This document shows, piece by piece, positions 6,127 to 49,625 of a DNA stretch of 50,192 nt (its first letter is position 1; each line of letters opens with the position of its first letter). Source of the stretch: a phage. The translations under genes and the position numbers were made by a program. Under the pieces are notes generated by a model. That model was not told the origin of the DNA. It saw only the letters and a list, made by a program, of their open reading frames with translations, and searched no databases. The stretch lies in the sequence record PZ445416.1; one strand, given 5' to 3'.

Positions 6127-6141
6127 TAACAAAAAGTGCTA
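6127..6141 (-). promoter_or_regulatory. isolated Box-A site (reverse orientation) before major capsid gene
   Basis: Minus strand TAGCACTTTTTGTTA between paralog B stop and terminator 6150-6177; no -10 at the cassette position. Confidence 0.45.
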
Positions 6142-6149
6142 TTATTGAA

Positions 6150-6177
6150 GCCGTGAACATAATCACGGCTTTTTTAT
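6150..6177 (+). terminator. rho-independent terminator
   Basis: GCCGTGA, loop ACATAA, TCACGGC, then TTTTTTATT. Confidence 0.7.
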
Positions 6178-6196
6178 TAACTACGGAGAAGTAATC

Positions 6197-7156
6197 ATGA
6201 CTACTAAAAAATTTGATGAAGCAGATAAAAGCAATGTTGAAATGTATCTGATCCAGGCTGGCGTAAAACAGGATGCAGCCGCAACGATGGGTATCTGGAC
6301 CGCTCAGGAACTACACCGCATCAAAAGCCAGTCCTATGAAGAAGACTACCCGGTAGGATCAGCTTTACGCGTATTCCCGGTTACAACCGATCTTTCTCCG
6401 ACTGATAAGACGTTTGAATACATGACCTTTGATAAGGTTGGTACTGCTCAGATTATCGCAGACTACACCGACGATCTTCCGCTGGTTGATGCCCTGGGTA
6501 CTTCTGAATTTGGCAAGGTGTTCCGTCTTGGTAACGCGTACCTGATCTCAATCGACGAAATCAAAGCGGGTCAGGCAACTGGTCGACCGTTATCGAACCG
6601 TAAGGCAAATGCGTGCCAGTTGGCGCATGATCAGCTTGTTAACCGCCTGGTGTTCAAAGGTTCCGCGCCGCACAAGATTGTGTCCGTGTTCAACCATCCG
6701 AACATCACCAAAATTACCTCTGGTAAATGGATTGATGTATCGACCATGAAGCCGGAAACTGCGGAAGCTGAGTTAACTCAGGCGATCGAAACCATCGAGA
6801 CGATTACTCGTGGTCAGCACCGCGCAACCAACATCCTGATCCCGCCTTCCATGCGTAAGGTTTTGGCGATTCGTATGCCTGAGACAACCATGTCTTACCT
6901 GGACTATTTTAAGTCTCAGAACTCCGGTATCGAAATCGACTCTATCGCAGAACTTGAGGATATTGACGGAGCAGGAACCAAAGGCGTACTGGTGTATGAA
7001 AAGAATCCGATGAACATGTCCATCGAGATCCCGGAAGCATTTAACATGCTGCCAGCACAACCGAAAGACTTGCACTTTAAAGTGCCTTGCACCTCTAAGT
7101 GTACTGGTCTTACAATTTATCGCCCGATGACTATTGTCTTAATCACTGGCGTGTAA
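6197..7156 (+). CDS. major capsid protein
   Basis: 319 aa, strong RBS, flanked by rho-independent terminators on both sides (high-expression unit), position after scaffold and decoration genes. Confidence 0.7.
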   Translation: MTTKKFDEADKSNVEMYLIQAGVKQDAAATMGIWTAQELHRIKSQSYEEDYPVGSALRVFPVTTDLSPTDKTFEYMTFDKVGTAQIIADYTDDLPLVDALGTSEFGKVFRLGNAYLISIDEIKAGQATGRPLSNRKANACQLAHDQLVNRLVFKGSAPHKIVSVFNHPNITKITSGKWIDVSTMKPETAEAELTQAIETIETITRGQHRATNILIPPSMRKVLAIRMPETTMSYLDYFKSQNSGIEIDSIAELEDIDGAGTKGVLVYEKNPMNMSIEIPEAFNMLPAQPKDLHFKVPCTSKCTGLTIYRPMTIVLITGV

Positions 7157-7163
7157 TATTATA

Positions 7164-7192
7164 GGGGCTAACTTAGTTAGTCCCTTTTTTAT
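7164..7192 (+). terminator. rho-independent terminator after major capsid gene
   Basis: GGGGCTAAC...GTTAGTCCC hairpin with one G-U wobble, then CTTTTTTATT. Confidence 0.6.
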
Positions 7193-7205
7193 TGGAGAAA
7201 TCAAA

Positions 7206-7493
7206 ATGGCTAAAGAAAAAACTGTTGTTATCGTAAACGTTGGTGTAGCTCTTCAGATGTTCCGTCTTGAAGATGGTTCCTTTGCTAAAGTTCTTCCAGA
7301 TGAAGAGGTCACGCTTCCGGCGTCCGTTCTTGATTTGCCTGGCCTGCGTTGCTTAATTGCTCGCGAAGAAATCGAAGTTAAAGACGACAGTGCAACCAAC
7401 CGCAAAATCCGCGCTGAAATGGCAAAGATCACTAAGCCAGATCCGTGGGATAGCAAAAGCGTTAAAGAGCTTGAGGACGGCGGCGAATATTAA
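7206..7493 (+). CDS. hypothetical head-associated protein
   Basis: 95 aa, RBS GGAGAAA, own terminator at 7501-7525. Confidence 0.5.
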   Translation: MAKEKTVVIVNVGVALQMFRLEDGSFAKVLPDEEVTLPASVLDLPGLRCLIAREEIEVKDDSATNRKIRAEMAKITKPDPWDSKSVKELEDGGEY

Positions 7494-7500
7494 TCATCAA

Positions 7501-7525
7501 GGCGCTCATGTAGCGCCTTTTTTTA
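7501..7525 (+). terminator. rho-independent terminator
   Basis: GGCGCTCATGTAGCGCC hairpin then TTTTTTT. Confidence 0.75.
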
Positions 7526-7537
7526 TGGGGGTAAATC

Positions 7538-7948
7538 ATGAATCAAGAAGCTTTAATTGCAGTTGTTGAGCAAATGCGAAAGCTGGTTCCGGCACTTCGT
7601 AAGGCTCCAGACGAAACGCTTTATGCGTGGGTAGAAATGGCTGAGCTATTTGTATGCCAGAAGACCTTTAAAGATGCATACGTCAAGGCGCTTGCTCTTT
7701 ATGCATTGCACCTTGCTTTCCTTGATGGGGCGCTAAAAGGTGAAGATGAGGATCTTGAATCGTACTCACGACGCGTTACGTCATTCTCCCTGAGCGGTGA
7801 ATTTAGCCAGACTTTCGGAGAGGTGACGAAGAACCAGTCAGGAAACATGATGCTTTCGACGCCGTGGGGTAAGATGTTCGAACAGCTTAAGGCGCGACGA
7901 CGTGGTCGATTCGCATTAATGACAGGACTCCGTGGAGGATGCCACTAA
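7538..7948 (+). CDS. putative head-tail connector/adaptor
   Basis: 136 aa, located between capsid and tail genes; function assigned by synteny only. Confidence 0.45.
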   Translation: MNQEALIAVVEQMRKLVPALRKAPDETLYAWVEMAELFVCQKTFKDAYVKALALYALHLAFLDGALKGEDEDLESYSRRVTSFSLSGEFSQTFGEVTKNQSGNMMLSTPWGKMFEQLKARRRGRFALMTGLRGGCH

Positions 7949-8319
7949 TGAACTACTCACAGATTGAAAGGATGGCTCGCAAAGGCGTGGCTTTCTTCAC
8001 CGATCCGTCAAGACCTATGAACCTGATAAAACAAGGTGAATACGGATATGATGAAAACGGATTCGAGATCCCACCAATGGAAAAGGTTATTCCAATATCC
8101 GGCGCGACGCGAAGACCGAACGCGCGTGAGATTGACGGGGAAACTATCCGCGCCTCAGATATTTTGGGGATCTTCAATAATGATCATGAAATAAACGAAG
8201 GTGACTATATAGAGATTGATGGCATTCGTCATGTTGTCGTTGATGCTCGCCCGGTTCAGGCGGCACTGAAACCAGTCGCCTATCGTCCAGTATTGCGGAG
8301 GGTATCAGTAGGTGGCTAA
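7939..8319 (+). CDS. putative head-tail joining protein
   Basis: 126 aa, overlaps neighbours by a few nucleotides (translational coupling); assigned by synteny. Confidence 0.45.
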   Translation: MPLMNYSQIERMARKGVAFFTDPSRPMNLIKQGEYGYDENGFEIPPMEKVIPISGATRRPNAREIDGETIRASDILGIFNNDHEINEGDYIEIDGIRHVVVDARPVQAALKPVAYRPVLRRVSVGG

Positions 8320-8755
8320 TTATCAGATTCGTAGATTTCAAGGCGAGATTGATGCGTGGATTAAGGCCGCTGAAAGCACGCTAGAACATGCTATTGAGAT
8401 ATTCGTAAGGGATGTTCACGATGCTCTTGTTAGTCGATCACCTGTCGATACTGGTCGATTTAAGGGTAACTGGCAGATAACTTTTAACGAAATCCCTAAC
8501 CACGCATTAAACCGATACGATAAAACTGGCGGCGTCGTCAGAGGTGAGGAGCAGGCCAAAACTTATGGCATGTTCAGCCGTGGCGGCGCGATAACATCCG
8601 TTCACTTTTCAAACATGTTGATTTATGCAAACGCTCTTGAGTACGGTCATTCACAACAAGCACCGAGCGGCGTTGTCGGCCTTGTAGCATTAAGGCTGAG
8701 ATCATATATGGCTGACGCAATCAAGCAGGCAAGGAGACAGCAAAATGCATTATGA
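8312..8755 (+). CDS. HK97 gp10-like neck/tail completion protein
   Basis: GTG start; contains SPVDTGRFKGNW, which resembles the conserved SP.DTG motif of the HK97 gp10 family. Confidence 0.55.
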   Translation: MANYQIRRFQGEIDAWIKAAESTLEHAIEIFVRDVHDALVSRSPVDTGRFKGNWQITFNEIPNHALNRYDKTGGVVRGEEQAKTYGMFSRGGAITSVHFSNMLIYANALEYGHSQQAPSGVVGLVALRLRSYMADAIKQARRQQNAL

Positions 8756-9143: not shown

Positions 9144-9144
9144 T

Positions 9145-9850: not shown

Positions 9851-9889
9851 TCTGTAAAATCATCTTATCAACTTTATTCGATTAACTTT

Positions 9890-9904
9890 TAACAAAAAGT
9901 GCCA
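9890..9904 (-). promoter_or_regulatory. isolated Box-A-like site (reverse orientation) before tail chaperone gene
   Basis: Minus strand TGGCACTTTTTGTTA (one arm mismatch) immediately before the CCAATCAGGAG leader of the chaperone gene. Confidence 0.4.
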
Positions 9905-9926
9905 TCAACCAATCAGGAGAAACATC

Positions 9927-13474: not shown

Positions 13475-13476
13475 TA

Positions 13477-16048: not shown

Positions 16049-16096
16049 CGCCTGTATAATGAGTCCACCGATAAATAGCACAAAAAGGTAAACATC

Positions 16097-19000: not shown

Positions 19001-19516
19001 GACTTAACGTTAAGCGCGCGACTTGGGAATAACGAGGCAGCACTTTCTCAAAAACTTGACTCGTGGAGTAACGCCGATTCGACTGGTGCAATGTACGGCG
19101 TCAAGCTGGGTCTGAAATACAACGGCCAGGAATACAGCGCAGGAATGGCTATGTCTCTGATTGGTTCCGGGGCTGCGGTTAAAGCGCAAATTCTATTCGA
19201 AGCGTCACGATTTGCAATCATGACTGGAATGAACGGTCAGACTCAGTATCCTTTCGTTGTTGAAGGTAATCAGGTGATTCTTAATAGTGCCATCATTAAG
19301 AACGGATTCATCACGAATGCGATGATTGGTAATGTTATTCAATCGAATAACTATGTCGTTAACAAGGCTGGCTGGAGACTTGACAAGGGAGGTACATTTG
19401 AAAACTACGGAAGTGATGGTGAGGGTGCAATGAAGCAAACTAATACCACAATATCTGTTAGGGATGCGAGTGGTCGCCTGAGGGTTCAGATTGGCAGGTT
19501 GACTGGCTCATGGTAA
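16097..19516 (+). CDS. tail tip / host-specificity protein (lambda J-like)
   Basis: 1139 aa, largest tail-tip ORF, with central fibronectin-III-like repeats and a C-terminal receptor-binding region; followed by terminator. Confidence 0.8.
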   Translation: MIQKVISGSKGGSQKPHNPVEMEDNLISINKIKILLAVSDGEIDETFSLKQLMFNSVPVQNEDGSFNFEGVKAEFRPGTQTQEYIKGMEDSSSEVTVNREVTTDNPYTISVTNKTLSAIRIKMFMPRGVRIESNGDKNGVRVEYEVQQAVDGGSFETVLTDVIEGKTMSGYDRSRRVNLPNFNNQVIFRVVRKTPDSNDSNVVDAIQVRSYAEVIDAKFRYPLTGLLFVEFDSKMFPNQLPTISIRKRWKIVNVPSNYDPESRTYNGNWDGTFKKAWTNNPAWVLYDLMINQRYGLDQKELGIAVDKWALYEAAQYCDQMVPDGKGGTEPRYLCDVIIQSQTDAYKVIRDICSIFRGMSFWNGESISVIIDRPREPAYIFTNDNVVNGDFSYTFASEKSMYTTCNVMFDDEQNMYQQDVEPVFDREATLRFGNNVTSITAIGCTRRSEANRRGRWILKTNLRSTTVNFATGLEGMIPTIGDVVAISDNFWSSNLTMNLSGRLLEVSGSQIFLPFRVDARAGDFIIVNKPDGKPVKRTISSVSADGKTIEINIGFGFPVKPNTVFAIDRTDIALQQYVVTKIDKGDDDEEFTYKITAVEYDPNKYDEIDYGVNIDDRPTSIVEPDQIPKPKNVKVSSESRIVQGMSVETMIVSWDKVPYAVFYDVQWRKDNGNWQNVPQTANKEVYVEGIYAGNYQVRVRSVAGSGTTSGWSNIVAATLTGKQGEPGRPINLTATDDVVFGIRTKWGFSDGSGDTAYTELQQSPDGTVDNASLLSLIPYPQHEYYHSPMPGGNIVWYRVRTVDRIGNVSQWTDFVRGMASTNVDDIIGEISVDIENSPGYEWLVDNATDNASQNAANAEAAIENALANDKDAIYMKKENGKRKAEYTKSLKLIADETEARVTAVEQLRASFGDQISASNSELREVIATETGALSREIDQLKAEIGDDIQASLTDIREAIANETEARTQADLTLSARLGNNEAALSQKLDSWSNADSTGAMYGVKLGLKYNGQEYSAGMAMSLIGSGAAVKAQILFEASRFAIMTGMNGQTQYPFVVEGNQVILNSAIIKNGFITNAMIGNVIQSNNYVVNKAGWRLDKGGTFENYGSDGEGAMKQTNTTISVRDASGRLRVQIGRLTGSW

Positions 19517-19522
19517 TATCAA

Positions 19523-19549
19523 GGGCATCGAGAGATGCCCTTTTCTTTT
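19523..19549 (+). terminator. rho-independent terminator after J-like gene
   Basis: GGGCAT, loop CGAGAG, ATGCCC, then TTTTCTTTT. Confidence 0.65.
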
Positions 19550-20833: not shown

Positions 20834-20862
20834 CATTGTATGTCGCATTTACTTTTATTGCA
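20834..20862 (-). promoter_or_regulatory. sigma70-type promoter for cor-like gene
   Basis: Minus strand TTGCAA (20862-20857), 17-bp spacer, TACAAT (20839-20834), about 28 nt before the start codon. Confidence 0.55.
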
Positions 20863-20966
20863 ATAGCACGATTACAATTTTCGTGTAACAGGTGTCTATT
20901 TTTGTAACCGGAGCGGGTGTTACAAAATCCACCCCATCCGACCGCAGAGGGGTATGATAAAAACTC

Positions 20967-21022
20967 TATATAATATATATAGATAGATAATATTTAATTT
21001 TAGCTTTATATATATAATTATT
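20967..21022. repeat. TA-rich tract with element TATATAATATATATAG
   Basis: TATATAATATATATAGATAGATAAT... within the 525-bp non-coding gap between cor and the exonuclease gene; the same 16-mer recurs at 40251-40266. Confidence 0.7.
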
Positions 21023-21270
21023 GTTGTGTAACAGTTGTCTATCGTGTAACTGGTGATTTGATTGATTCGTCAAATTTCTATCATATACGTTCAAAATTTA
21101 ATCAATATGGATTCTACTTGTAGCTATCTCTGTATTTCTAAGAAAAATCGGTTACAAGTATTACACAGTAGACATCACATAAAAATAGACTTAAGCCATT
21201 GATTCCGTTAATGCTGGTTGTAACTTGAGCGATATAGACACGCTATTACACACCAATTACATGTATCCGA

Positions 21271-21298
21271 TTGACTAAACGCTGTTAATGGCTATAAT
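21271..21298 (+). promoter_or_regulatory. sigma70-type early promoter for recombination module
   Basis: TTGACT (21271-21276), 16-bp spacer, TATAAT (21293-21298); leader CATCGTAAACGAAGGAG before the ATG at 21330. Confidence 0.6.
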
Positions 21299-21329
21299 GG
21301 ATTCATCGTAAACGAAGGAGATAAACGCA

Positions 21330-22394: not shown

Positions 22395-22468
22395 ACGGCA
22401 CAAATAGCTAAACAAATAATTAATGAGGTGTTATAATGCACCTCATACACCAATCAGGAGAAGTTAAT

Positions 22469-23616: not shown

Positions 23617-25599
23617 TTACTTGTTTTCGATTAGTCTGTTAACCAACACTTCAAGCGCTGACAGTCTTGATTCAAGATCAGCGATCCTTTCCTTGTTCTG
23701 TTCATCACGAGCACGTAGCGCCTTGATTGCAGCAAGTCCATCTAAAAGCATTGGTGTCCGATCTAGGTGGTAGTACCCACCAATTAATTTGGTGTATTCC
23801 TTATCGATTCCTCGAATTTGTTGGCTGATAACACCCCTTCGGACAGTTGGCTCTTTATTTTGGTCCCTTTCTTCTTTAAACCGGAATAGTTTAAAGTCCA
23901 TGCGGTTAATGTTATCCAATGCCCCCTCGACGTTAAGATTACCAAGCACGTCTTTAAGACGTTCATCAGAGACTGCGCTCATAGTGTATTCCGACCACGG
24001 TTGCCACCCACCTTTGTTGGTGTTCACCCTTGAGTACGTGACGTTCCCTGTAGTGTAGTAGATCTGACGCCACCATACATCTTTCGGGTTATAGCTCCCT
24101 GGTAAGCTACCCTCCTTAAGACCCTGCGAGCAATAAGAGAAACAAGACCCGTAAGTGTCCGTGACAGGACCGTTAGCTGGGTTGCCAGCAACATACGACC
24201 AGCCCTGTGCAATATCGTCAAAGTTACCAAGCCATACGTCGTCACCATTCCACATCAAACCACCTTTTAGCGCTAACGATGTATCCGCACCTTCGACCCC
24301 CTCGATTTGTGGGAACTCAAGCCGCTGAAAGGTTCCGTTGCCGTCGTTGGCGCGGCGGTACAGGCGTACGATTCCGTCATCGTTTAGCTCAAGCGACATG
24401 TTATGGCGCATTGATGACGACTCAATGGTGTCGTTAGTGAGGCTGATTTTAGGCGAAGCATTCCCGCGTACCTTAACCATGCTCGACGCTCGCACTTCGC
24501 TCGGCCCGGATAATAGTCCATCCTCGTTATACGTGAGGTATGCGGTCTTTGCCGCTTCATGGTTCCCTGTAGAAATAGAGGTGGTGGATTTGCCGTCAAC
24601 CAGTTCGTTGTTAAACGTCGATTTTGTTAACAGCGCACCGCCCGCATCATTTCGGTGGGACTCCATGCCGCCGCCGTATGCAGTACCGTTCAGTTTTAGG
24701 TGCAAGGATTGGTGAGTTACGTTATCCGCGTCACCAAGCCCCACATTAGTTCGCGACGTCGGCAGATCAGCCAGGCCAGCCAGGTTGTCGGATTTAGTTA
24801 GCAGGTTTTCAGCATTAACGCTATTTGCTGCGTCTTTCGCTTCCTGAGCACTTACCGCCGCCGCATCTTTTGCGCTTACCGCATTGTCACGCGCTACCTG
24901 AGCGTCGTTTTTTGCAGAGGTTGCCGTTTGCGCTGCCGTTTGAGCGTCATTAACGTAACCTGACAGATCGCCTTTTGCGTCATTAATTGCCTGAATCGCC
25001 GCTGCCTCTTCTGTGTCAATGTGAGAGATAACAGATGATTCCTTAGATCCGATATTAGTAATAGCCTGATCTTTTGCCGCATTAATGCTATCTACAGCGC
25101 CGTCAACAATTTGCTGAGTCTGGTTCTTGATTGAGTTAGTTTCATCACGAGCCGCATTTGCTGCGTCACGAGCTAATTCAGATTGATTCTGAGCCGACTC
25201 TGCCGCCGATTTGTTCGCCTTAATTTCCTCAACGATACGGTTAAGGTTATCCATACCCAGATCTGCAATGATATCCATTGCCCCAGCAATCTCAGTCTCT
25301 TTACTTTGATAGTATCTAAGCGTCTCAGCAACGTTTTGAGCCAATCCATTAACGGTTAGTGAGTCGTTAAGCAGGATTACATACTTTCCGTCAGCGGCAG
25401 TCTGACCATCCGTAGAGATAGCCTTTAACTCTGTGTCACTCACAATATCGCTGATTACAGCCAGCTTAATTGGTTGCTCCAGGAATACGATAGTTGCACC
25501 GACTCGAATCAGAGCAAGCTGATCTTTCCATTTTGTATCGGTTCCGTGAACTGTGCCGTCTGCATCCATTGATGCCGTACCGCGTCGATATAAAGCCAT
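23617..25599 (-). CDS. tail fibre with C-terminal intramolecular chaperone (peptidase S74-like) domain
   Basis: 660 aa; C-terminus has SDERLKDV followed by a roughly 110-aa coiled-coil domain, matching the autocleavage motif of S74 chaperone domains. Confidence 0.75.
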   Translation of the reverse strand: MALYRRGTASMDADGTVHGTDTKWKDQLALIRVGATIVFLEQPIKLAVISDIVSDTELKAISTDGQTAADGKYVILLNDSLTVNGLAQNVAETLRYYQSKETEIAGAMDIIADLGMDNLNRIVEEIKANKSAAESAQNQSELARDAANAARDETNSIKNQTQQIVDGAVDSINAAKDQAITNIGSKESSVISHIDTEEAAAIQAINDAKGDLSGYVNDAQTAAQTATSAKNDAQVARDNAVSAKDAAAVSAQEAKDAANSVNAENLLTKSDNLAGLADLPTSRTNVGLGDADNVTHQSLHLKLNGTAYGGGMESHRNDAGGALLTKSTFNNELVDGKSTTSISTGNHEAAKTAYLTYNEDGLLSGPSEVRASSMVKVRGNASPKISLTNDTIESSSMRHNMSLELNDDGIVRLYRRANDGNGTFQRLEFPQIEGVEGADTSLALKGGLMWNGDDVWLGNFDDIAQGWSYVAGNPANGPVTDTYGSCFSYCSQGLKEGSLPGSYNPKDVWWRQIYYTTGNVTYSRVNTNKGGWQPWSEYTMSAVSDERLKDVLGNLNVEGALDNINRMDFKLFRFKEERDQNKEPTVRRGVISQQIRGIDKEYTKLIGGYYHLDRTPMLLDGLAAIKALRARDEQNKERIADLESRLSALEVLVNRLIENK

Positions 25600-25620
25600 A
25601 ATATAAACTCCTTAAATAAA

Positions 25621-25635
25621 TAGCACGAATTGCTA
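25621..25635 (+). promoter_or_regulatory. isolated Box-A site
   Basis: TAGCACGAATTGCTA between tail fibre start and primase terminator; only a weak hexamer (TATGAG) at the 22-bp position and no plus-strand gene downstream. Confidence 0.45.
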
Positions 25636-25673
25636 AACACAGATTTTATCATTGCTCTATGAGTCTTGCAACG

Positions 25674-26635: not shown

Positions 26636-26651
26636 TTCCAGATCTCCAAAT

Positions 26652-26696
26652 AAAAAACGCGTAGAAGGATGTTAACCCGCTACGCGTCGTTTGTTT
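26652..26696 (-). terminator. terminator/attenuator-like hairpin between HTH gene and primase
   Basis: Minus strand stem CGCGTAG / CTACGCG with 15-nt loop followed by TTTTTTA; long loop makes it weak. Confidence 0.4.
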
Positions 26697-27148
26697 TAAC
26701 TAAAAATGCTATTCGTCGTTCCAATATCTTCCTTCTTCACGACTCGCATAAACTTCTTGTTTTTGCATCGCTTCTCAAGGCACTTTCCGTTCCCATCAAA
26801 CTTCAGATCGAATCGTAGCCATGCCGCCCGGAATCCTTTGCAACCCTGTCGGCGGTAAGCACGATGCGCTGCTTCAGCGCCTTGCCATGAAATCATATTG
26901 CGATCTTTCCAGCCTTGCACCGTCTGATTGCTAACTTTTAGAGCCTTTGCGCAGGCCGCAGGACCACCGTAATATTCGATAAGAGCATCCAATCGCGCTC
27001 TCAGTCCTGCGCGCGTTTCTTCTTTATGGATATAAAATCCGCAGCGCTGGCGAGGCTTTTTATCTTTACCGCGTCGTGTTCCGTTGTTACCATTGATGTG
27101 ACGTTTATCGATTTCACCAGTAGACTCTGCGATACGTTTCATATTCAT
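26696..27148 (-). CDS. HTH DNA-binding protein (YdaS/Cro-like)
   Basis: Start moved to MNMKR after AGGAG; segment GGPAACAKALKVSNQTVQGWK resembles YdaS/XRE-type helix-turn-helix; basic N-terminus. Confidence 0.5.
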   Translation of the reverse strand: MNMKRIAESTGEIDKRHINGNNGTRRGKDKKPRQRCGFYIHKEETRAGLRARLDALIEYYGGPAACAKALKVSNQTVQGWKDRNMISWQGAEAAHRAYRRQGCKGFRAAWLRFDLKFDGNGKCLEKRCKNKKFMRVVKKEDIGTTNSIFS

Positions 27149-27161
27149 CTTAATTCTCCTG

Positions 27162-27204
27162 TAGCACTTTTTGCTAAAAACGTTTACTGTATGCCGTGTA
27201 TTAT
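27162..27204 (+). promoter_or_regulatory. Box-A cassette (putative phage promoter/operator) upstream of helicase
   Basis: TAGCACTTTTTGCTA, 22 bp, TATTAT; in the divergent gap between the HTH gene and helicase. Confidence 0.6.
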
Positions 27205-27242
27205 ATCGTAAACGATACAACGATTCAAAGGATTAAATAGCC

Positions 27243-30455: not shown

Positions 30456-30703
30456 TGAGCGAAAAAATGGTTCCTGTTAAATTAACTGAGCAAGGTTTAT
30501 GGCTACTTTATCGAGCTACGTGCTGCGAGATTATGGAGCGAAATGGATTGACTAAGGATGTTATTGGTTGCGATCTGTGGGAGTTCACTAGTTCTCTTGA
30601 TATGTCTTTCGAAGAGATAAGGAATGAATACATTGAGAATTGGCCATTAATCATCCAAAAAGACGTAGAAGAACTTTCTTCTGAGATAATCACACAGCAC
30701 TAA
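30452..30703 (+). CDS. hypothetical protein
   Basis: Start at MMSEK after GAGGAAAG, overlapping the dam stop; 83 aa. Confidence 0.45.
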   Translation: MMSEKMVPVKLTEQGLWLLYRATCCEIMERNGLTKDVIGCDLWEFTSSLDMSFEEIRNEYIENWPLIIQKDVEELSSEIITQH

Positions 30704-30737
30704 TTGCTAAAACTACCCGGCGAAAGTCGGGTATAGT
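30695..30737 (+). promoter_or_regulatory. Box-A cassette
   Basis: CAGCACTAATTGCTA, 22 bp containing hairpin ACCCGGCGAAAGTCGGGT, TATAGT; upstream stop TAA is inside the box. Confidence 0.6.
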
Positions 30738-30769
30738 TATTTCATGGAAACGAAATGAGGAATCAGAAG

Positions 30770-30979: not shown

Positions 30980-31229
30980 GCGCGAAGTGTGGGAGCACGC
31001 AAAGGAATGCGGAATCTCAGACGATATAGCACTAATAGCAAAATATTTCGATATAAAGGATGTTAGCATTATCTCAAACGGAAAGATTTCATTTATGGAA
31101 GATATGCCGAGAAAAATGCATAGAGTGCCAGCTACCCCATCACTTGAATTTTATCGTGAAGAAGGAAAGAGAATTGAGCGAGAACGAAAAACAGCAAAGA
31201 GCAACAAGTCTTCCAGGCTTAAACATTAA
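30957..31229 (+). CDS. hypothetical protein (frame-ambiguous region)
   Basis: 90-aa ORF overlapping a second long ORF in another frame over a Lys/Glu/Arg-rich AAG/GAA-repetitive stretch. Confidence 0.35.
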   Translation: MLIKKKGKREVWEHAKECGISDDIALIAKYFDIKDVSIISNGKISFMEDMPRKMHRVPATPSLEFYREEGKRIERERKTAKSNKSSRLKH

Positions 31230-31539: not shown

Positions 31540-32691
31540 ATGTCACAATCTAAAATCACTACCGAGCAACTTATCGAAGAACGCATGAACGGACTTACAC
31601 TTCGCGAGATCGCGGAAAAGTACGGTATGCACATTCGCACGGTTGAAGCTCGCCACGCAAAATTGGCAAAAGAAGGCCACTTCCACGGTAACGAGCATGT
31701 CGCTAAGAACGTACCGGAAGGATTCATGGTAAAAGGTACATCAACGATGATTCGCGGAGATGGGACCGAGGTAGTGCGCTGGGTTAAAACCGATCAGGAC
31801 CGTGAGAAGATCGCGGCAATGATGGAAGCGGCGCGCATTGCATTCTGTGAAGACCTGCCGCGAGCAAAGCCAACCGAGCTACTAGCCTCGCAAGGGCTTA
31901 CGACAGCGATGGGTAAGTTGGCGCTCTATCCGGTGTTCGATCTTCATATTGGTGCGCTTGCTCATAAGCATGAATGCGGTGAGAACTATTCCACCGACGT
32001 AGCGGAAAAAGTGCTTAGCGACTTCTTTAATTACGCGATCGATATCGCGCCGAACGCAGAGAAGGCTGTTCTGTTAATCGGCGGCGACTTCCTTCACTCT
32101 GACGGCCTTGATGCAGTTACCCCGGCAAGTGGTCACGTTCTTGATCAGGACTCACGATACGCAAAATTAGTTCATGTTGCGATTCGTTCGGTACGCCGAG
32201 CCATCGACAAAATGCTTATGAAACACAAAGAAGTCGAGGTCCAGGTTATCGAAGGGAACCACGATCAGTCTGGGATGATTTGGCTGCGAGCTGCAATGTC
32301 GGCATATTATGAAGACGAGCCGCGAGTATTCGTTGACGTTAGTCCTATGATTCTGCATAAGACTCGTTGGGGAAATACCTTGCTGGGATACACTCACGGG
32401 CACACTATGAAAAAGGCAGACACGCGACTTGCAGCAATGGCGGCAGATTTCCGGTCAGACTTCGGTGAGAGCAAGTATGTGTATACTCATAGCGGTCACT
32501 GGCATCACCAGACAATCACTGAGCACTCGCTTGGTATTGATGAAGTACACGGTCAGTTAGGCGCGAAAGATGCATACGCCGCGCGAGGCGGGTGGCGCTC
32601 ATATCGCCAGGCGGCGGTAATAGTTTACGATAAACAGTTTGGTGAAATCGGTCGATTCATCTACCGTCCAGAAATGACAGGATCGCACTAA
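31540..32691 (+). CDS. metallophosphoesterase with N-terminal HTH domain
   Basis: N-terminal LTLREIAEKYGMHIRTVEARHAKL is HTH-like; calcineurin-type motifs GGDFLHSDG, EGNHDQ, GHTHG and GHWHH. Confidence 0.65.
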   Translation: MSQSKITTEQLIEERMNGLTLREIAEKYGMHIRTVEARHAKLAKEGHFHGNEHVAKNVPEGFMVKGTSTMIRGDGTEVVRWVKTDQDREKIAAMMEAARIAFCEDLPRAKPTELLASQGLTTAMGKLALYPVFDLHIGALAHKHECGENYSTDVAEKVLSDFFNYAIDIAPNAEKAVLLIGGDFLHSDGLDAVTPASGHVLDQDSRYAKLVHVAIRSVRRAIDKMLMKHKEVEVQVIEGNHDQSGMIWLRAAMSAYYEDEPRVFVDVSPMILHKTRWGNTLLGYTHGHTMKKADTRLAAMAADFRSDFGESKYVYTHSGHWHHQTITEHSLGIDEVHGQLGAKDAYAARGGWRSYRQAAVIVYDKQFGEIGRFIYRPEMTGSH

Positions 32692-32725
32692 TTGCTAAAG
32701 ATACCCGAATCCCTTCGGGTATAGT
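32683..32725 (+). promoter_or_regulatory. Box-A cassette
   Basis: TCGCACTAATTGCTA, 22 bp with perfect IR ATACCCGAA/TTCGGGTAT, TATAGT. Confidence 0.6.
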
Positions 32726-32754
32726 AATCACATCGAAAACAAAGAGGATATATC

Positions 32755-32931
32755 ATGAAACTAGTTAAGTGCATCCGAAATGACTCCAAAACACTTCCAT
32801 TCCGCGTAAATCAGATCTATAGTGTTGGTTATGATTTCGGTGGGGGATTATTTGAGATTCACGATGGTCGAGGTTCAGCAATCCAGGCTCCTCTGAACGG
32901 CAGCTATCTGGAATTTATTGCGATAGATTAA
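32755..32931 (+). CDS. small hypothetical protein (58 aa)
   Basis: ORF MKLVKCIRND..., absent from the supplied track; sits at the canonical distance downstream of Box-A cassette 32683-32725 with RBS AAAGAGGA. Confidence 0.4.
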   Translation: MKLVKCIRNDSKTLPFRVNQIYSVGYDFGGGLFEIHDGRGSAIQAPLNGSYLEFIAID

Positions 32932-34168: not shown

Positions 34169-34382
34169 ATGCATCATCCCACATGTAACTTTCGTTCGTG
34201 AGTTTTGCGTATTCGCGAACTTCAATCTCACAGGTGTCTCCGTACATCTCAGCGACCTTCTTCTCGTTCGCTACCGCCGTTTCTTCATCCCATCCATCAG
34301 CCTTGCTGTAAATGGTAGGAATCTCACTGCTAGTGCCGTTAGAGTGGTTGTAAACGCGAACTACTAAAAATTTGTTAGCCAT
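34167..34382 (-). CDS. hypothetical protein
   Basis: Start moved to MANKF after AAGGAAAG; downstream of Box-A cassette 34420-34462. Confidence 0.5.
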   Translation of the reverse strand: MANKFLVVRVYNHSNGTSSEIPTIYSKADGWDEETAVANEKKVAEMYGDTCEIEVREYAKLTNESYMWDDA

Positions 34383-34419
34383 GATGCTTTCCTTCAGGTC
34401 GTTTCGTTTCGATGAAACA

Positions 34420-34462
34420 AATATACCCGATACGAGATCGGGTGTTTTAACAAAAAGTGCTA
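34420..34462 (-). promoter_or_regulatory. Box-A cassette (minus strand)
   Basis: Minus strand TAGCACTTTTTGTTA, 22 bp with IR CCCGAT/ATCGGG, TATATT, leader CATCGAAACGAAACGA. Confidence 0.6.
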
Positions 34463-34571
34463 TTTGTACCTTTTTACGTGAAGTAGCAACTCCCCCTCCT
34501 GGTCGCAAAGATTATGCTCGCTTTCGTTACTAGCCCTCATTGAAGTGAGTAACAGACTCAACAACCCTTGC

Positions 34572-39173: not shown

Positions 39174-39862
39174 TCCGCGATCGCTTTAAAAAATCCCCTG
39201 GGTGATAGGGATCGTATCAACTTAGTTTTGGCAGATTTGCCGCCTAGCTTGCTGTGCTGCGCAGAGTACCCGTCAGGCAGGCTTACAGGTTTTCTTTCAG
39301 GCATGACAAAATCGTCAGAGGTCCACAGACAAGTTTTCTTCGGGTAAGCATCGCGCGGCGCAATATACATAGGGAACCAGGGATGCGCGTCATTCTCAGG
39401 AAGATAGCCGCCATACTCCCAGGGATTGAAGGAGTGATTTGGTTTTCTCCACACAGACGACAGGACGCTAACCGGATTCTCAATGATGTAAGTCACACCC
39501 AGGCTATCGCCAATGTTCGCGGCAATCCTTGCGGTGGCAACGGCCTTTTCCTGGAATAACGGATCGCGTTCACGCTTTCTTGCGAAGTGGGCGGCACCGC
39601 TAACAGCCAGGTCGGTACACGGAGGGAAAGCCATAATGAAATCCGGCTTGCCATACACACCAGCGATAGCATCACGCTCAAACGCTGCGTCAATGAACAC
39701 GTTCACATACTCAATGTTCGGATGCTCCACCCGGGCATTGTACTTTGCATAATCCCCGTGATCGGCTCCGTCAAAGTTGAAGCACATCACCTTGTGACCT
39801 TGCTTAGCCAGTTCATGACCAGCAAGACCGGAACCGTCGAATAGCGACCAGATTAATTTCAT
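39158..39862 (-). CDS. C5-cytosine methyltransferase-like protein
   Basis: Start moved to MKLIW after AGGAG; motif order FDGSG (I), FPPCTDLAVSG (IV, Thr in place of the usual Gln), IIENP (VI); short at 234 aa. Confidence 0.55.
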   Translation of the reverse strand: MKLIWSLFDGSGLAGHELAKQGHKVMCFNFDGADHGDYAKYNARVEHPNIEYVNVFIDAAFERDAIAGVYGKPDFIMAFPPCTDLAVSGAAHFARKRERDPLFQEKAVATARIAANIGDSLGVTYIIENPVSVLSSVWRKPNHSFNPWEYGGYLPENDAHPWFPMYIAPRDAYPKKTCLWTSDDFVMPERKPVSLPDGYSAQHSKLGGKSAKTKLIRSLSPRGFFKAIADSTFC

Positions 39863-39895
39863 TGCAAATCTCCTACTGATTGGTTGATGTGATGA

Positions 39896-39939
39896 ATCAT
39901 ACACTGCCAGCCTGACCAAGTCGTTAGCAAAAAATGCTA
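39896..39939 (-). promoter_or_regulatory. Box-A cassette (minus strand) upstream of C5-methyltransferase-like gene
   Basis: Minus strand perfect palindrome TAGCATTTTTTGCTA, 23 bp, TATGAT, leader CCAATCAGTAGGAG. Confidence 0.6.
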
Positions 39940-40020
39940 TTCCAATAGTTGCTCATTATTCCACCAGTAATGGAATATCTGGAATAATTGCGATCCCGAT
40001 TGATCTCGAATGATGAAATG

Positions 40021-40090
40021 TGATTGTTGCATGATGTGCAACTGTTGATGTGATTGTTGCTTGGAATGCAATGATTGTGAGAGGGAGGAT
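40021..40090. repeat. iteron-like direct repeats and short palindromes
   Basis: 13-mer ATGTGATTGTTGC at 40028 and 40058 (30-bp register), plus palindromes TTGCATGATGTGCAA and TTGC-N6-TGCAA. Confidence 0.55.
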
Positions 40091-40129: not shown

Positions 40130-40144
40130 TAGCAAAACGTACTA
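40130..40144 (-). promoter_or_regulatory. isolated Box-A-like site within AT-rich hub
   Basis: Plus strand TAGCAAAACGTACTA (minus strand TAGTACGTTTTGCTA); no hexamer at the cassette position. Confidence 0.4.
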
Positions 40145-40230
40145 TCGATTACACTTTAACTTGTCACGATTGTAATATTTGTCTAGAATCGCACTTGTGA
40201 CAAAATTACGCACTGTGACGCATAACAATA

Positions 40231-40300
40231 GACATATAGATATATGTATATATATAATATATATAGTGTTTTTTTTATTTATATATATAGATAATCATAT
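40231..40300. repeat. TA-rich tract with element TATATAATATATATAG (second copy)
   Basis: TATATGTATATATATAATATATATAG...ATATATATAGATAAT inside the 630-bp non-coding hub between the divergent early clusters. Confidence 0.7.
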
Positions 40301-40548
40301 TGTAATAGTTGTGTATAGCTGTCTTACATTGTCTAGCGTACTGTTGGCATATTTCTATCTGCATGTTTATATATACAGTACTTTTTTGAGAGCTATATAT
40401 TTCTATGGTTACTCTAGACAGCTAGACAAATGTTACACGGCTTAAAATTGACTCGCAGGCATTGACAGCTCTACATCACGTTGTCACAATGGCAATTGTT
40501 GACACATTATGACGCCATTTACACACAAATAGACAAAGAGGATATATT

Positions 40549-44214: not shown

Positions 44215-44363
44215 TGGCGGCGTGGATTTTGATTATCTTGATGAGTACCGGGCCGGATCACGTATACATGGAAAGTCAGCAATCATGCAACAAGGCTCGG
44301 GAAGTAATTGCAGAGAGCAAGCCGTTCGGATACGAAGTAAAAACGATGTGCGTTAAACGATAG
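44214..44363 (+). CDS. small hypothetical protein (49 aa)
   Basis: ATG overlaps upstream TAA; hydrophobic N-terminus (AAWILIILMS); stop TAG is the first triplet of Box A at 44361; absent from the track. Confidence 0.35.
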   Translation: MAAWILIILMSTGPDHVYMESQQSCNKAREVIAESKPFGYEVKTMCVKR

Positions 44364-44403
44364 CACGAATTGCTAAACCTTCCGCAAGGCCATTTGATAT
44401 AGT
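44361..44403 (+). promoter_or_regulatory. Box-A cassette
   Basis: TAGCACGAATTGCTA, 22 bp with IR AAGGCCA/TGGCCTT, TGaTATAGT. Confidence 0.6.
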
Positions 44404-44443
44404 GGCCTTATTGAAGCAAGGCAACCAATCAGAGGAATCAGCT

Positions 44444-46427: not shown

Positions 46428-46470
46428 TAGCACGAATTGCTAAAACTTGCTCAAGGGTATTTGATAGAAT
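46428..46470 (+). promoter_or_regulatory. Box-A cassette upstream of HAD phosphatase gene
   Basis: TAGCACGAATTGCTA, 22 bp, TGaTAGAAT, leader CCAATCAGAGGA. Confidence 0.6.
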
Positions 46471-46510
46471 GCCCTTCGTTGAGTTAAGCAACCAATCAGA
46501 GGAATAAATC

Positions 46511-47230: not shown

Positions 47231-47803
47231 ATGAAAACAGCTATCATTTTAAACGGCGCACCTGGTGCGGGAAAGGACACTATCGGATGCATCCTGGCTG
47301 ACACTTACGATCACGTAGCGCTACGCAGCTTCAAAGCGCCAATGTTTGAGATTGCCCGAGCAATCCTGGGTGAGACTAATTTCGAGTATTTCATGTTCTT
47401 GTACGAGGACCGTCGCTATAAAGAAGAGCCAACATCAATCCTGAACGGTAAAAGCCCACGCCAGTTCATGATCTGGATTAGCGAGGAGGTCATCAAGCCG
47501 CAGTTCGGAAATCGCTTCTTCGGTATGCGAGCGGAAAGCAAGGTGAAAGAGTCGCACTCCCTTTCGGTATTTACTGACGGTGGATTCAAAGATGAGATCC
47601 TACAAATGATTGAAGGTGATATCCAGGTTAAGCTATGTCGAATCCATCGCAACGGTTGCAGCTTTGATAACGACAGCCGAGACTATATCTATCTTGACGA
47701 TATGATCGGGGTCAACGGTTATCAGGAATGTGACTTCTTTTCTGTCGAAGGCCATCCAGAAATTACCGCTCAGCACATAGCCGCCACGTTCATCAACAAA
47801 TAG
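47231..47803 (+). CDS. P-loop kinase (polynucleotide 5'-kinase / nucleotide kinase-like)
   Basis: Walker A LNGAPGAGKDT at residues 7-17; 190 aa; adjacent to the HAD phosphatase gene. Confidence 0.6.
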   Translation: MKTAIILNGAPGAGKDTIGCILADTYDHVALRSFKAPMFEIARAILGETNFEYFMFLYEDRRYKEEPTSILNGKSPRQFMIWISEEVIKPQFGNRFFGMRAESKVKESHSLSVFTDGGFKDEILQMIEGDIQVKLCRIHRNGCSFDNDSRDYIYLDDMIGVNGYQECDFFSVEGHPEITAQHIAATFINK

Positions 47804-47843
47804 CACGAATTGCTAAAACTTCGGTGGGGTGATTTGATATAGT
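47801..47843 (+). promoter_or_regulatory. Box-A cassette
   Basis: TAGCACGAATTGCTA (TAG is the kinase stop), 22 bp, TGaTATAGT, leader CATCGACAACGAAGAGAG. Confidence 0.6.
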
Positions 47844-47875
47844 TACCTCATCGACAACGAAGAGAGAAAATCGAA

Positions 47876-48085
47876 ATGATGGTATCAACTGATAAGTTTT
47901 TCACTTGCAATAAAACTTCTGAAGTATTCGAACTGGTTCATACTGATAATGGTGACTTCATGCATGACGGTTGCGACGTTTTCATTGAAGTGAAAGAAAG
48001 CGACTATGACGATGGGGTTTATTATAACCCGGCAGTGAACACTCAGTTTTTTACCCCGATCGAAGATGAAGGAGAAGAAGCATGA
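47876..48085 (+). CDS. hypothetical acidic protein
   Basis: 69 aa, RBS AGAGAGAAA, downstream of cassette 47801-47843. Confidence 0.5.
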   Translation: MMVSTDKFFTCNKTSEVFELVHTDNGDFMHDGCDVFIEVKESDYDDGVYYNPAVNTQFFTPIEDEGEEA

Positions 48086-48405
48086 TCACGATTAACCTGT
48101 CAGATAAACAAGCGCGTGAAATCCTCGACACTATCGGCGAACAGCTTCACGTAAAAGGCGCTACCGCTGAGATTCTTAACCAGATCGAAAGACAGCTAAC
48201 TCCGGTGTCGACGAATCAAGCTGAGTTCGCAGCATGGAAAAGCGAACGCATTACGCCAAATATTATCAAGGCATGGAAGCGCAAGCATAAAAAAGAAATC
48301 AATGTTGAGGATAAGCTAACGGAAGTTTTGAATAACTTCACTAAATATCAAATCGCATACATGGAAAGGGTAACAGGTTTTCATTTAATTAGTGGGGATA
48401 AATAA
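48082..48405 (+). CDS. hypothetical protein
   Basis: 107 aa, start overlaps upstream stop. Confidence 0.5.
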   Translation: MITINLSDKQAREILDTIGEQLHVKGATAEILNQIERQLTPVSTNQAEFAAWKSERITPNIIKAWKRKHKKEINVEDKLTEVLNNFTKYQIAYMERVTGFHLISGDK

Positions 48406-48635
48406 TGTTCGGTTTAAGCGAAGCGGAGTGGAACGTAGTAAAGCGTGCAGCTAAGGAATTAAACAAATTCGTCAGTGGAATGAAGAAAGAAGATCGTAAA
48501 AACGACAAGATCATGATTGACGTGATTTCGACTCACCACAAAAAGGTCGAGCTACTCATTGACCGATACAAATTTGTCTGGACTGCCGGGTATATTGCTG
48601 GGCGCGTAGGGAACAAAGAAGGGGATTACGAATAA
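48405..48635 (+). CDS. hypothetical protein
   Basis: 76 aa, start overlaps upstream stop. Confidence 0.5.
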   Translation: MFGLSEAEWNVVKRAAKELNKFVSGMKKEDRKNDKIMIDVISTHHKKVELLIDRYKFVWTAGYIAGRVGNKEGDYE

Positions 48636-48838
48636 TGGCTAACTTACCGAAGAAAGGCGAGCAGGTTCGATGTGTCACTTCACGCAATAGCGATGCTTTC
48701 TCAGCAGGGTGCGCGTACGATGTGGAAAAGGTTAGTAAATCAAAGAGATTGGTATTCGTATACGGCGATGATGGAAACCTGCACGAGATTGATTACCCGC
48801 AGGATATGACTAAGGGGCAATTCGAAATTAATGATTGA
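48635..48838 (+). CDS. hypothetical protein
   Basis: 67 aa, start overlaps upstream stop. Confidence 0.5.
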   Translation: MANLPKKGEQVRCVTSRNSDAFSAGCAYDVEKVSKSKRLVFVYGDDGNLHEIDYPQDMTKGQFEIND

Positions 48839-48864
48839 CCTAAATCCCTGAGCGGTGATAGTAT
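48835..48864 (+). promoter_or_regulatory. sigma70-type promoter with extended -10
   Basis: TTGACC (48835-48840), 18-bp spacer including TG, TAGTAT (48859-48864); followed by a ~135-nt structured untranslated region. Confidence 0.45.
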
Positions 48865-49002
48865 TAATCCCGTAGATAGACGAGGCGCAACTAAGCGCAA
48901 CGCGTGAGACGATTCTCACACTTCCAGCTAACAAGCTCGGTTGCATAGTGGTTAAGCAACGCCGCAGACCCGTAAGCGGCAACAATTCAAGAGGATTGCA
49001 TA

Positions 49003-49164
49003 ATGCAAAAAACTAAAGACGAATCAGTCAAAATTGAAATTAAAGTAACTCGCAACGGTGAAACCACTCGTTATAAAAAACGATTAAATCCTGGCGAGGC
49101 TGTTATTGGTCGCATTGCTGGCGTTATGATTAAGGCGCAGGAAGATGAAGCGATTCAAAGTTAA
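49003..49164 (+). CDS. small hypothetical protein (53 aa)
   Basis: ORF MQKTKDESVKIEIKVTRNGE... with RBS AAGAGGA; absent from the supplied track. Confidence 0.4.
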   Translation: MQKTKDESVKIEIKVTRNGETTRYKKRLNPGEAVIGRIAGVMIKAQEDEAIQS

Positions 49165-49330
49165 ATTAATTATTCGAAAGATGGGAATGTTTTGCCAGTC
49201 TTGCAAGCAATCTTTCGAAACTGAATTATCAGCAACCAGTCAGGCAGAAGCCATCACGAAAGCAAAAAAACTTTCCGGCGCTAACCTTGACACTCACAAA
49301 ATAAATATTGAATTAATCAAGGAGATTTAA
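49145..49330 (+). CDS. hypothetical protein
   Basis: 61 aa with CQSC motif; start uncertain (49145 overlaps previous ORF; alternative ATG at 49181). Confidence 0.35.
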   Translation: MKRFKVKLIIRKMGMFCQSCKQSFETELSATSQAEAITKAKKLSGANLDTHKINIELIKEI

Positions 49331-49331
49331 C

Positions 49332-49559
49332 ATGACAATTTTTTTATTGATTATCGCTGGTGTTGTTATTTTTGGTGCTGGTTTGTTTGCTGGCTTCGCA
49401 CTTGTTGCGGCAGCAATTGCGATGGACGCTAAGGATAAAACTGGTGTATGGCTGACATACTCGCCTAAGAAGGATCAATGGGAAATGACTGGCGACCTTG
49501 CTCACTGCTACTCTAAAGCTCAGACCCACCCTAAAGGCATTAAACGACGATTGTCGTGA
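49332..49559 (+). CDS. small membrane protein
   Basis: RBS AAGGAGA; N-terminal TM helix IFLLIIAGVVIFGAGLFAGFALVAAAI; followed by terminator. Confidence 0.5.
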   Translation: MTIFLLIIAGVVIFGAGLFAGFALVAAAIAMDAKDKTGVWLTYSPKKDQWEMTGDLAHCYSKAQTHPKGIKRRLS

Positions 49560-49569
49560 TAAACACTAA

Positions 49570-49590
49570 CCCGCTCCGGCGGGTTTTTTT
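49570..49590 (+). terminator. rho-independent terminator before TerS
   Basis: CCCGCTCCGGCGGG hairpin then TTTTTTT. Confidence 0.75.
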
Positions 49591-49610
49591 ATGCCTGCAA
49601 TATGGTAAAA

Positions 49611-49625
49611 TAGCACTAAATGTTA
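49611..49625 (+). promoter_or_regulatory. isolated Box-A site over the TerS leader
   Basis: TAGCACTAAATGTTA immediately downstream of extended -10-like TGgTAAAAT (49603-49611) and 18 nt before the TerS ATG. Confidence 0.5.

Follow-up and report, generated by a model that had tools for sequence, protein, structure and literature searches.

The window studied here is the whole of a phage DNA stretch of 50,192 nucleotides (nt; sequence record PZ445416.1), and the element in question is Box A, a short repeat that stands before many of its genes. The window was a complete, circularly permuted genome of a T1-like phage (Tunavirus) and began at the large terminase gene; its first 25 kb were about 94% identical to coliphage T1 and close relatives. 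The gene map was taken from the T1 and SA32RD annotations. The plus strand carries the gene of the small terminase subunit (TerS) and the structural genes (from 49644 to about 20.5 kb), the minus strand carries the tail fibre (23617-25599) and primase genes, and the small early genes form two arms that diverge from an AT-rich hub near 40 kb. Before the early genes, Box A is part of a cassette with a spacer and a -10 hexamer. An earlier note on the window had listed five isolated copies, at 6127 (major capsid protein, MCP), 9890 (tail chaperone), 25621 (tail fibre), 40130 (hub) and 49611 (TerS). All five 15-mers were found at these coordinates; four were strong copies, and the one at 40130 was degenerate in this genome.

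Box A and the marbox of Escherichia coli

Judged by its sequence, Box A is the marbox of the host, an asymmetric site, about 20 bp long, that is recognised by the monomeric AraC/XylS-type stress regulators MarA, SoxS and Rob (and by RamA in Klebsiella and Salmonella). The Box A 20-mer was ATAGCAC(G/T)(A/T)(A/T)TTG(C/T)TAAAAC, and it contained the GCAC and YAAA elements, 7 bp apart, of the marbox. The consensus from MarA chromatin immunoprecipitation sequencing (ChIP-seq) is gcactaattgctaaa (PMC5684230), and the sites at 30697 and 32685 matched it in 15 of 15 positions. The core of the TerS copy (GCACTAAATGTTAAA) was, base for base, the E. coli pheP site, which was positive for MarA by ChIP and by electrophoretic mobility shift assay (PMC5684230). 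Moreover, GCATTTTTTGCTAAC at 39923 was 1 nt off the E. coli ypeC site. Box A was also asymmetric: G3 was invariant with C/T at its mirror position, C6 was mirrored by T, and A-rich flanks were present on both sides. This asymmetry argues against a symmetric dimer or dyad, as in the marbox.

The number of copies was examined with a pattern and two matrices. The pattern TAGCANNNNNTGYTA, with at most one mismatch, gave 51 strand matches, equal to about 27 sites, and shuffles gave 5.7. The first matrix (24 nt) was trained on 19 full cassettes of the window. Genome-wide, it returned 25 sites of at least 20 bits and four intermediate sites (11.6-18.3 bits), and all else scored 6.7 bits or less; the listed sites scored 31.0 (25621), 28.6 (6127), 23.0 (40130, better on the minus strand), 22.4 (9890) and 22.3 bits (49611). 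The second matrix was made from the 30 E. coli MarA ChIP-seq sites printed in PMC5684230, with phage sequence excluded, and its chance level was taken from Markov simulations in place of counts in unrelated phage genomes. With this ChIP matrix, 30 window sites reached at least 14 bits, compared with 1.4 in the simulations (maximum 4), and 23 scored above 16.6, the highest value simulated; the 20 kb of late coding sequence contained only one site with 14 bits or more. Four of the five listed sites scored 17.9-19.7 bits and 40130 scored 11.1. The median genuine E. coli site scored 13.5 bits, which was exceeded by the majority of the phage sites. The five listed sites are true copies and not chance matches.

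The 21-nt direct repeat of phage TLS, aaATAGCACnnnTTGnTAAAA, is the same element as Box A (PMC11447400). In TLS, 18 intergenic copies of A, T and G subtypes are oriented along transcription, about 76 nt before start codons, and according to its authors the repeat also occurs in T1, Rtp and Rogue1 (PMC11447400). Its function was left open between a stoperator, an enhancer-binding site and an UP-like element, and the marbox was unmentioned (PMC11447400). The listed sites agreed with the TLS repeat in sequence and differed from it in orientation and distance, and late copies that are reversed or overlap a promoter depart from the published description. Three of the five (MCP, chaperone and tail fibre) were reversed relative to the adjacent gene, and the boxes ended 18-55 nt before start codons. 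A stoperator as in mycobacteriophage L5 was considered and rejected: it needs asymmetric sites within transcription units, all in one orientation, and a temperate-phage repressor, and here the orientation was mixed at the late genes, the phage is a virulent T1 relative and no repressor was identified. In the literature searched, on T1 and Drexlerviridae promoters and transcriptomes and on links to the marbox, Rob, MarA or SoxS, the TLS repeat description alone was found. The marbox identity of Box A is a more important result than the verdicts on single sites, and its link to T1-like phages was new relative to that literature.

Early cassettes and their candidate reader

The E. coli micF promoter was read as ACAGCACTGAATGTCAAAAC, 18 nt, TAGAAT and 7 nt to +1, with the marbox centred at -41.5. 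Following this example, start sites were placed 8 nt past the end of the -10 hexamer, and every start site and promoter given here is predicted. Class II marbox promoters carry a forward marbox that overlaps the -35 position, is centred near -41 and stands in for a recognisable -35, which is absent (PMC12052159, PMC10268841). In the window, TAnnnT was found at exactly the 18-bp gap of micF at 17 sites; near-class II sites had CATTAT or CATAAT at the 18-bp gap (n=2), a gap longer by 1 bp (n=2) or a gap shorter by 1 bp (n=1). Every cassette copy faced its downstream gene, and the box was centred near -40.5. From this geometry, about 20 early units are predicted class II marbox promoters, with a forward marbox, 18 bp, a -10 and no -35. 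The same arrangement was found at the antisense copy of the chaperone gene and was lacking at the MCP, tail fibre, hub and TerS copies. Compared with the class II promoters of micF, lpxC, lpxL and rfaY, which MarA, SoxS, Rob or RamA activate, the early cassettes had the same 20-bp asymmetric site, orientation, 18-bp gap, centre and absence of a -35. In contrast to E. coli, the phage packs about 20 such promoters into one virulent genome, many of them with a terminator hairpin between marbox and -10.

Phage activators of promoters without a -35 include Mor and C of Mu and MotA/AsiA of T4. These systems and the cassettes share a -10 alone and an upstream protein site that replaces the -35. However, Mor, C and MotA/AsiA are phage-encoded and use other sites, whereas the site here is that of a host regulon and an AraC-type protein was not found in 20 early proteins. 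As for an ordinary -35, TTGYTA of Box A was rejected: it lies 22 bp from the -10, and the hexamer at 17 bp is unlike a -35.

Two forms of hairpin were seen within the cassettes (34380-34465, 30695-30745, 44361-44420, 46428-46480 and 26640-26712). T-type cassettes had a terminator-like hairpin between marbox and -10 (acccg...cgggTATAGT), and in G-type cassettes the -10 lay in the hairpin loop (AAGGCCAtttgaTATAGTGGCCTT). Many of these hairpins are annotated as terminators in T1 and SA32RD. By their position, they would be met by transcripts that come from upstream, and transcripts started locally would begin inside or after the hairpin. Conserved words were seen after the -10 in the cassette leaders (for instance at 44410-44430, 46480-46500 and 39860-39885): CATCGAAACGA or CATCAAC at the predicted start site, and AACCAATCAG(A)GGA directly before start codons. 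The latter word also stood before the late tail chaperone gene (9905-9926). The unit that leads into holin, endolysin and spanin (32683-32760) had a perfect consensus marbox, GCACTAATTGCTAAA, with class II geometry. A marbox at 31029 (31027-31070) had TGtTAGCAT at or near the class II gap, within a region of predicted small open reading frames. At the helicase gene, the -10 of the class II promoter, TATTAT (27199-27204), overlapped a minus-strand TATAAT (27146-27215), which would read an ST23-like helix-turn-helix (HTH) gene through a reversed marbox adjoining its ribosome-binding site (RBS). This layout, the same as at the tail chaperone gene, suggests a toggle between two directions.

The ST23-like gene (26699-27148, minus strand) is the best candidate for a phage-encoded reader of Box A. 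A Cro-type HTH protein from this gene would activate the cassettes and repress the late genes, and the marbox likeness would be convergence or mimicry; we consider this quite improbable. The gene is flanked by boxes (26693-26712 and 27160-27180) and conserved beside primase down to 46% identity, and its product belongs to PHROG 2856 ('transcriptional regulator'), with a weak match of residues 54-84 to the HTH of P22 Cro or YdaS. The G-type box TAGCACGAATTGCTA is a near-perfect dyad, and a phage-made factor would yield an ordinary early-to-late cascade. Against such a binder, the box is asymmetric exactly as the marbox and always forward in the cassettes, and validated E. coli sites and the micF spacing are both matched exactly. 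The ST23-like protein has a single HTH, and its Pfam match is below threshold. Furthermore, nearly all early units, including the leftward hub unit, depend on a box, so that a phage activator would first have to be supplied from very few box-free promoters. No solved homologue of the ST23-like protein was found. It co-occurred with primase in every lineage examined, and its distribution was non-discriminating.

A phage-encoded MarA-like protein was also considered and rejected: Pfam and PHROGs scans of 20 early phage proteins, including all those of unknown function of at least 100 amino acids, gave no AraC-type domain. The candidate regulator is most likely a host protein rather than a phage protein, because the box is the host marbox.

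Copies of Box A at the late genes

The features around the late copies are listed in Table 1. The earlier note had described its five copies as late-gene sites that lack the hexamer and spacer of the cassettes. The late-gene description was right for MCP, tail chaperone, tail fibre and TerS and wrong for the hub copy, and the lack of hexamer and spacer was seen at four sites and contradicted at 9890, where an antisense TAAGAT stands at cassette spacing. The list was also incomplete, as three further copies (before tail J, between recE and erf, and before primase) lie outside the full early cassettes.

Table 1. Marbox copies and neighbouring predicted promoter features at the late genes, the hub and the additional sites.
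Feature	Position	Strand	Description
A-rich UP-like block CATAACATAAAAAC	6101-6114	+	precedes the -35 of P(MCP)
P(MCP)	6101-6145	+	-35 TTGACG 6118-6123, 16-bp spacer, TGcTATTAT with -10 TATTAT 6140-6145
Marbox ATAGCACTTTTTGTTAAAGC	6123-6142	-	17.9 bits, ChIP matrix
Terminator-like hairpin	6147-6171	+	between P(MCP) and the MCP start codon at 6197
Convergent overlapping -10s	9853-9867	both	sense cTGTAAAAT (hexamer 9855-9860), antisense TGaTAAGAT (hexamer 9867-9862)
Marbox ATGGCACTTTTTGTTAAAAG	9886-9905	-	17.9 bits; within the tail chaperone leader (ATG 9927)
Marbox-like site ATAGCACAAAAAGGTAAACA	16075-16094	+	forward; 15.3 bits; tail J leader (ATG 16097), overlaps the RBS
Marbox	22395-22414		between recE and erf; a -10, TGtTATAAT (region 22395-22437), stands at or near the class II gap and overlaps the start codon of erf
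Marbox ATAGCACGAATTGCTAAACA	25620-25639	+	18.9 bits; reversed relative to the tail fibre gene
P(tail fibre)	25643-25671	-	TTGCAA 25671-25666, 17 bp, TGaTAAAAT 25651-25643; downstream of the primase terminator
Marbox ATAGCATTTTTAGTTAAAAC	26693-26712	-	14.7 bits; end of the ST23-like gene, before primase
Degenerate marbox ATAGTACGTTTTGCTAAAAA	40126-40145	-	11.1 bits, ChIP matrix; reversed
P(TerS), extended -10 TGgTAAAAT TGGTAAAAT	49603-49611	+	downstream of terminator 49569-49584
Marbox ATAGCACTAAATGTTAAACA	49610-49629	+	19.7 bits; forward; overlaps the last 2 nt of the TerS -10

The MCP box was reversed relative to its gene and occupied the spacer of P(MCP), from about -30 to -11. Its GTGC provided the TG of the extended -10, and its final TA was the first two bases of the -10. 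The predicted start site was near 6153, in the 5' arm of the hairpin. P(MCP) agreed with the consensus in 10 of 12 positions and was the best intergenic promoter match of the late region; it is listed as a promoter in the SA32RD annotation, and its hexamers were kept while the upstream coding sequence diverged. The comparison covered distinct sequences upstream of MCP from IMG/VR relatives, with MCP identity as low as 57%. A reversed marbox abutting the -10 was the best marbox in 53 of the 54 Drexlerviridae sequences. The interior of the box switched between T-type and G-type by lineage, and GCAC or GCAT, TAAA, the -35 TTG and the -10 TA...T were fixed. Such subtype switching with fixed ends argues that the box itself is under selection. 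An antisense sigma-70 promoter at 6127 (TTGTTA-17-TATGTT) was rejected because its would-be -11 A was G in many lineages.

At the tail chaperone gene, exactly 18 bp separated the marbox 20-mer from the antisense TAAGAT, which makes a complete class II cassette in antisense. A reversed marbox of at least 14 bits was the best site of the chaperone region in 25 of 48 distinct contexts. In all 24 distinct box-bearing lineages an antisense TAnnnT stood at the class II gap, with TG in 21 of them, and the 20-nt spacer varied freely. The sense TAnAAT, one base from the antisense hexamer, was likewise kept in 24 of 24. As convergent promoters, the two have their predicted start sites at the border of each other's -10. 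The antisense open complex would overlap the sense -10, and a polymerase kept there would shut out the sense promoter. A sigma-54 reading of this site (TGGCAC at 9890, where TGGCAC-N5-TTGC is expected) was rejected: Box A, TAGCAC-N3-TTGC, is 2 bp short and usually has AG for GG.

The TerS leader was as the earlier note had described it, with TGGTAAAAT at 49603-49611, the end of the box at 49625 and 18 nt between that end and the ATG at 49644. The box extended from about -9 to +11, over the predicted start site. In relatives, TG and TAAAAT were kept and the middle base varied (g, c, a), and the arrangement was shared by Tunavirus and two relatives (TerS identity 71-77%). The tail fibre box lay at about -4 to +16 of P(tail fibre), also over the predicted start site, and was conserved in Tunavirus and two more distant relatives. 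There, the -35, TGn, -10, box and RBS were kept, and the promoter spacer and the 7 nt from -10 to box varied. An own-strand class II hexamer at 25621 was rejected as unconserved (TATGAG here, TATCCG or TATTGG in relatives). The TerS box was absent from more distant lineages at the few loci examined; the single-protein locus searches with TerS and primase reached near relatives only, and the absence of the TerS and fibre boxes from distant lineages rests on few loci.

In many non-T1 lineages (L018-L064), the portal gene was preceded by a forward marbox, 8 nt upstream of TATAAT and a hairpin; this arrangement, with TAGCAC at the -35 position, lay roughly 4.3-4.8 kb upstream of MCP. The T1 lineage kept the TATAAT and hairpin there (window 1586-1622), and the marbox was absent.

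The tail J leader had the order terminator, cTGTATAAT (16053-16060), 14 nt and marbox-like site, which places the site at about +8 to +27. Of 53 distinct lineages, 42 had a forward marbox with 12 bits or more at 11-14 nt after the -10, and five of these 42 had the canonical GCACAAATTGTTAAA and a separate RBS. At the box before primase, TAACAT stood at the class II gap in the loop of a terminator hairpin, and relatives have a box there too.

The hub copy read GTACGTTTTGCTAAA in this genome, with GTAC for GCAC, and its better orientation was minus; T1 and SA32RD have a perfect ATAGCACTTTTTGCTAAAAA at its place. It was centred about -61.5 from a predicted rightward hub promoter, TTGTCA-17-TAGAAT (40161-40189), and the hub promoter of T1 differs (TTGATT-17-TATGAT) at the same position. 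Class I marboxes are reversed, lie upstream of a good -35 and are centred at -56 to -85, in most cases at -62 or -72 (PMC12052159, PMC10268841). With its mutated GCAC, and measured from a predicted start site, the hub copy would have class I, that is activating, geometry. Two AT-rich non-coding hubs were seen in the window (40150-40520 and 20850-21300), with (TA)n runs and the repeated words TTGTCAC, TGTGAC, TGTAACAG, TGTCTA and TAGACA, and direct repeats of GTGATTGTTGC lay at 40020-40080. The hubs could be an origin, a pac region or sites for another factor, for example the ST23-like protein.

It is very improbable that the late copies act in RNA or as DNA landmarks, that is, by antitermination through the likeness of the reversed T-type CUUUAACAA to the rrn boxA (NusB/NusE), or as homology blocks for module exchange. 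The late region does contain at least nine terminator-like hairpins, the plus-strand transcripts at 6127 and 9890 would carry CUUUAACAA, and the repeats flank many small gene units. However, the orientation relative to late transcription was mixed, reversed at MCP, chaperone and fibre and forward at TerS and J; lineages L053-L062 had a G-type box at MCP, without UUUAACAA; and conservation followed the marbox GCAC and TAAA rather than the boxA core, with positions fixed relative to the -10 hexamers. The specific form of an rrn or lambda boxA signal (GCUCUUUAACAA-like RNA) was rejected, as CUUUAACAA was found in reversed T-type copies only and the forward late copies and G-type MCP lineages were without it. 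A -10-like hexamer (TATAAT, TAATAT or TATTAT) was also seen directly before the late terminator hairpins at 1586-1622, 5285-5318, 7155-7185 and 19512-19542, as at P(MCP). This pattern may be partly just TAA stop codons.

A proposed marbox factor in phage gene timing

Apart from the chaperone copy, the late copies had no own-strand class II hexamer, and those at MCP, TerS and tail fibre overlapped predicted sigma-70 promoters. P(MCP), P(TerS) and P(tail fibre), all predicted and conserved in relatives, had the marbox where an operator would lie, over core promoter elements or the start site. There, or directly downstream of a late promoter, a bound protein is more likely to hinder transcription than to promote it, as productive recruitment of polymerase would not be expected. 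The blocking position proposed in the earlier note for the TerS copy thus also applies to MCP, tail fibre and the unlisted tail J site, and does not apply to 9890 (antisense class II) or 40130 (class I). As for its proposal that one regulator activates one gene class and represses another, the positions lend partial support, and the regulator is more likely host- than phage-encoded.

What was observed is that the copies agree in sequence with validated marboxes, and how they are placed and conserved in relatives; actual binding, the sign of the effect, the host paralogue that acts and the release of the switch are what we infer. A factor that binds the marbox would drive the cassettes while hindering initiation at the late genes, and the late genes would be released as the free factor falls; we give this reading an even chance of being correct. 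At about -41, the host marbox protein would recruit sigma-70 RNA polymerase to the cassettes, a step that the exact geometry supports. The same protein in the MCP spacer and over the extended -10 would occlude the promoter, and at the predicted TerS and tail fibre start sites or within the tail J leader it would act by steric occlusion or as a roadblock. At the chaperone gene the marbox would be the activator site of the antisense promoter, with promoter competition as the result. Two routes of release may be imagined, both speculative: decay of MarA and SoxS, which are Lon-labile (PMC7216687), after host shut-off, or titration of Rob by replicating phage DNA.

The activating and repressing roles have a precedent in E. 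coli. MarA, SoxS and Rob activate class II promoters, and they repress pbpG through a marbox that covers the spacer (PMC12052159). There, repression by MarA was seen in vivo and not in vitro, and repression by SoxS was seen in vitro (PMC12052159). At pbpG as in the phage, the marbox sits within the core of a sigma-70 promoter that would be good unaided. The phage sites differ in being nearer the marbox consensus than most host sites, and their repression is what we infer. Marbox-mediated repression was reportedly also described by Schneiders and Levy at purA, hdeA and rob.

Several points weigh against the view that one factor drives the cassettes and holds back the late genes. Unstressed E. 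coli cells have little MarA and SoxS, and most of their Rob is sequestered (PMC5684230), which makes these proteins odd drivers of a 13-minute lytic cycle. The lysis genes stand behind a perfect cassette (32685), so the genes behind cassettes are not all early. The TerS and tail fibre copies were confined to Tunavirus and near relatives, and other lineages box the portal gene instead; these differing late locations indicate that placement is evolutionarily fluid. A marbox inside the core promoter may also activate: MarA activates flgBP2 from -16 to -30 (PMC12781870), and a reverse marbox over the -35 activates yadG (PMC10268841). The 15-mer of P(MCP), at -13 to -27, lies in the spacer by the -10 as at flgBP2, 3 bp apart from that position. 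Finally, all start sites and promoters used in the argument are predicted, and the release of repression is speculative.

The flgBP2 and yadG examples lend themselves to another explanation, in which the host marbox proteins bind the late copies with a positive or neutral effect, either as an aid to opening at P(MCP), through distortion of the DNA beside the -10 as at flgBP2, or as sinks for MarA, SoxS and Rob that blunt the host stress response. We regard it as unlikely. At flgBP2, MarA unpairs bases 5 bp beyond its site (PMC12781870), about half of the in vivo marbox targets are outside class I and class II (PMC10268841), and each phage genome has about 25 predicted high-affinity sites. However, flgBP2 is a weak sigma-28 promoter with an opening defect, whereas P(MCP) is a near-consensus sigma-70 promoter that needs no help, and its GCAC covers the TG of the extended -10 read by sigma-70. 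The TerS and tail fibre sites cover predicted start sites, and a pure sink would not need positions fixed to the bp relative to the -10s across lineages.

A broader form of the even-chance reading, in which a marbox factor drives the cassettes and hinders the late genes, is offered with considerable doubt: the time development of Drexlerviridae may run on the MarA/SoxS/Rob/RamA code, with about 20 class II early units, every late promoter under a marbox operator or a marbox-driven antisense promoter, and the switch made by loss or titration of the factor. MarA and SoxS would then decay after host shut-off, or Rob would be diluted over hundreds of replicated genomes with about 25 sites each.

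If the repeat is the marbox, the open question of the function of the TLS repeat becomes directly testable. The late-gene copies are the most informative in this respect; if the model is right, mutating them would shift late-gene timing. If true, a virulent phage family would have based the majority of its promoters on a single stress regulon of the host, and inducers of that regulon (salicylate, bile salts, redox drugs and some antibiotics) are predicted to shift phage gene timing and yield. Phage development would then be tied directly to the antibiotic and oxidative stress state of the host, which would be relevant to phage therapy against E. coli, Klebsiella and Salmonella and to the control of T1 contamination.

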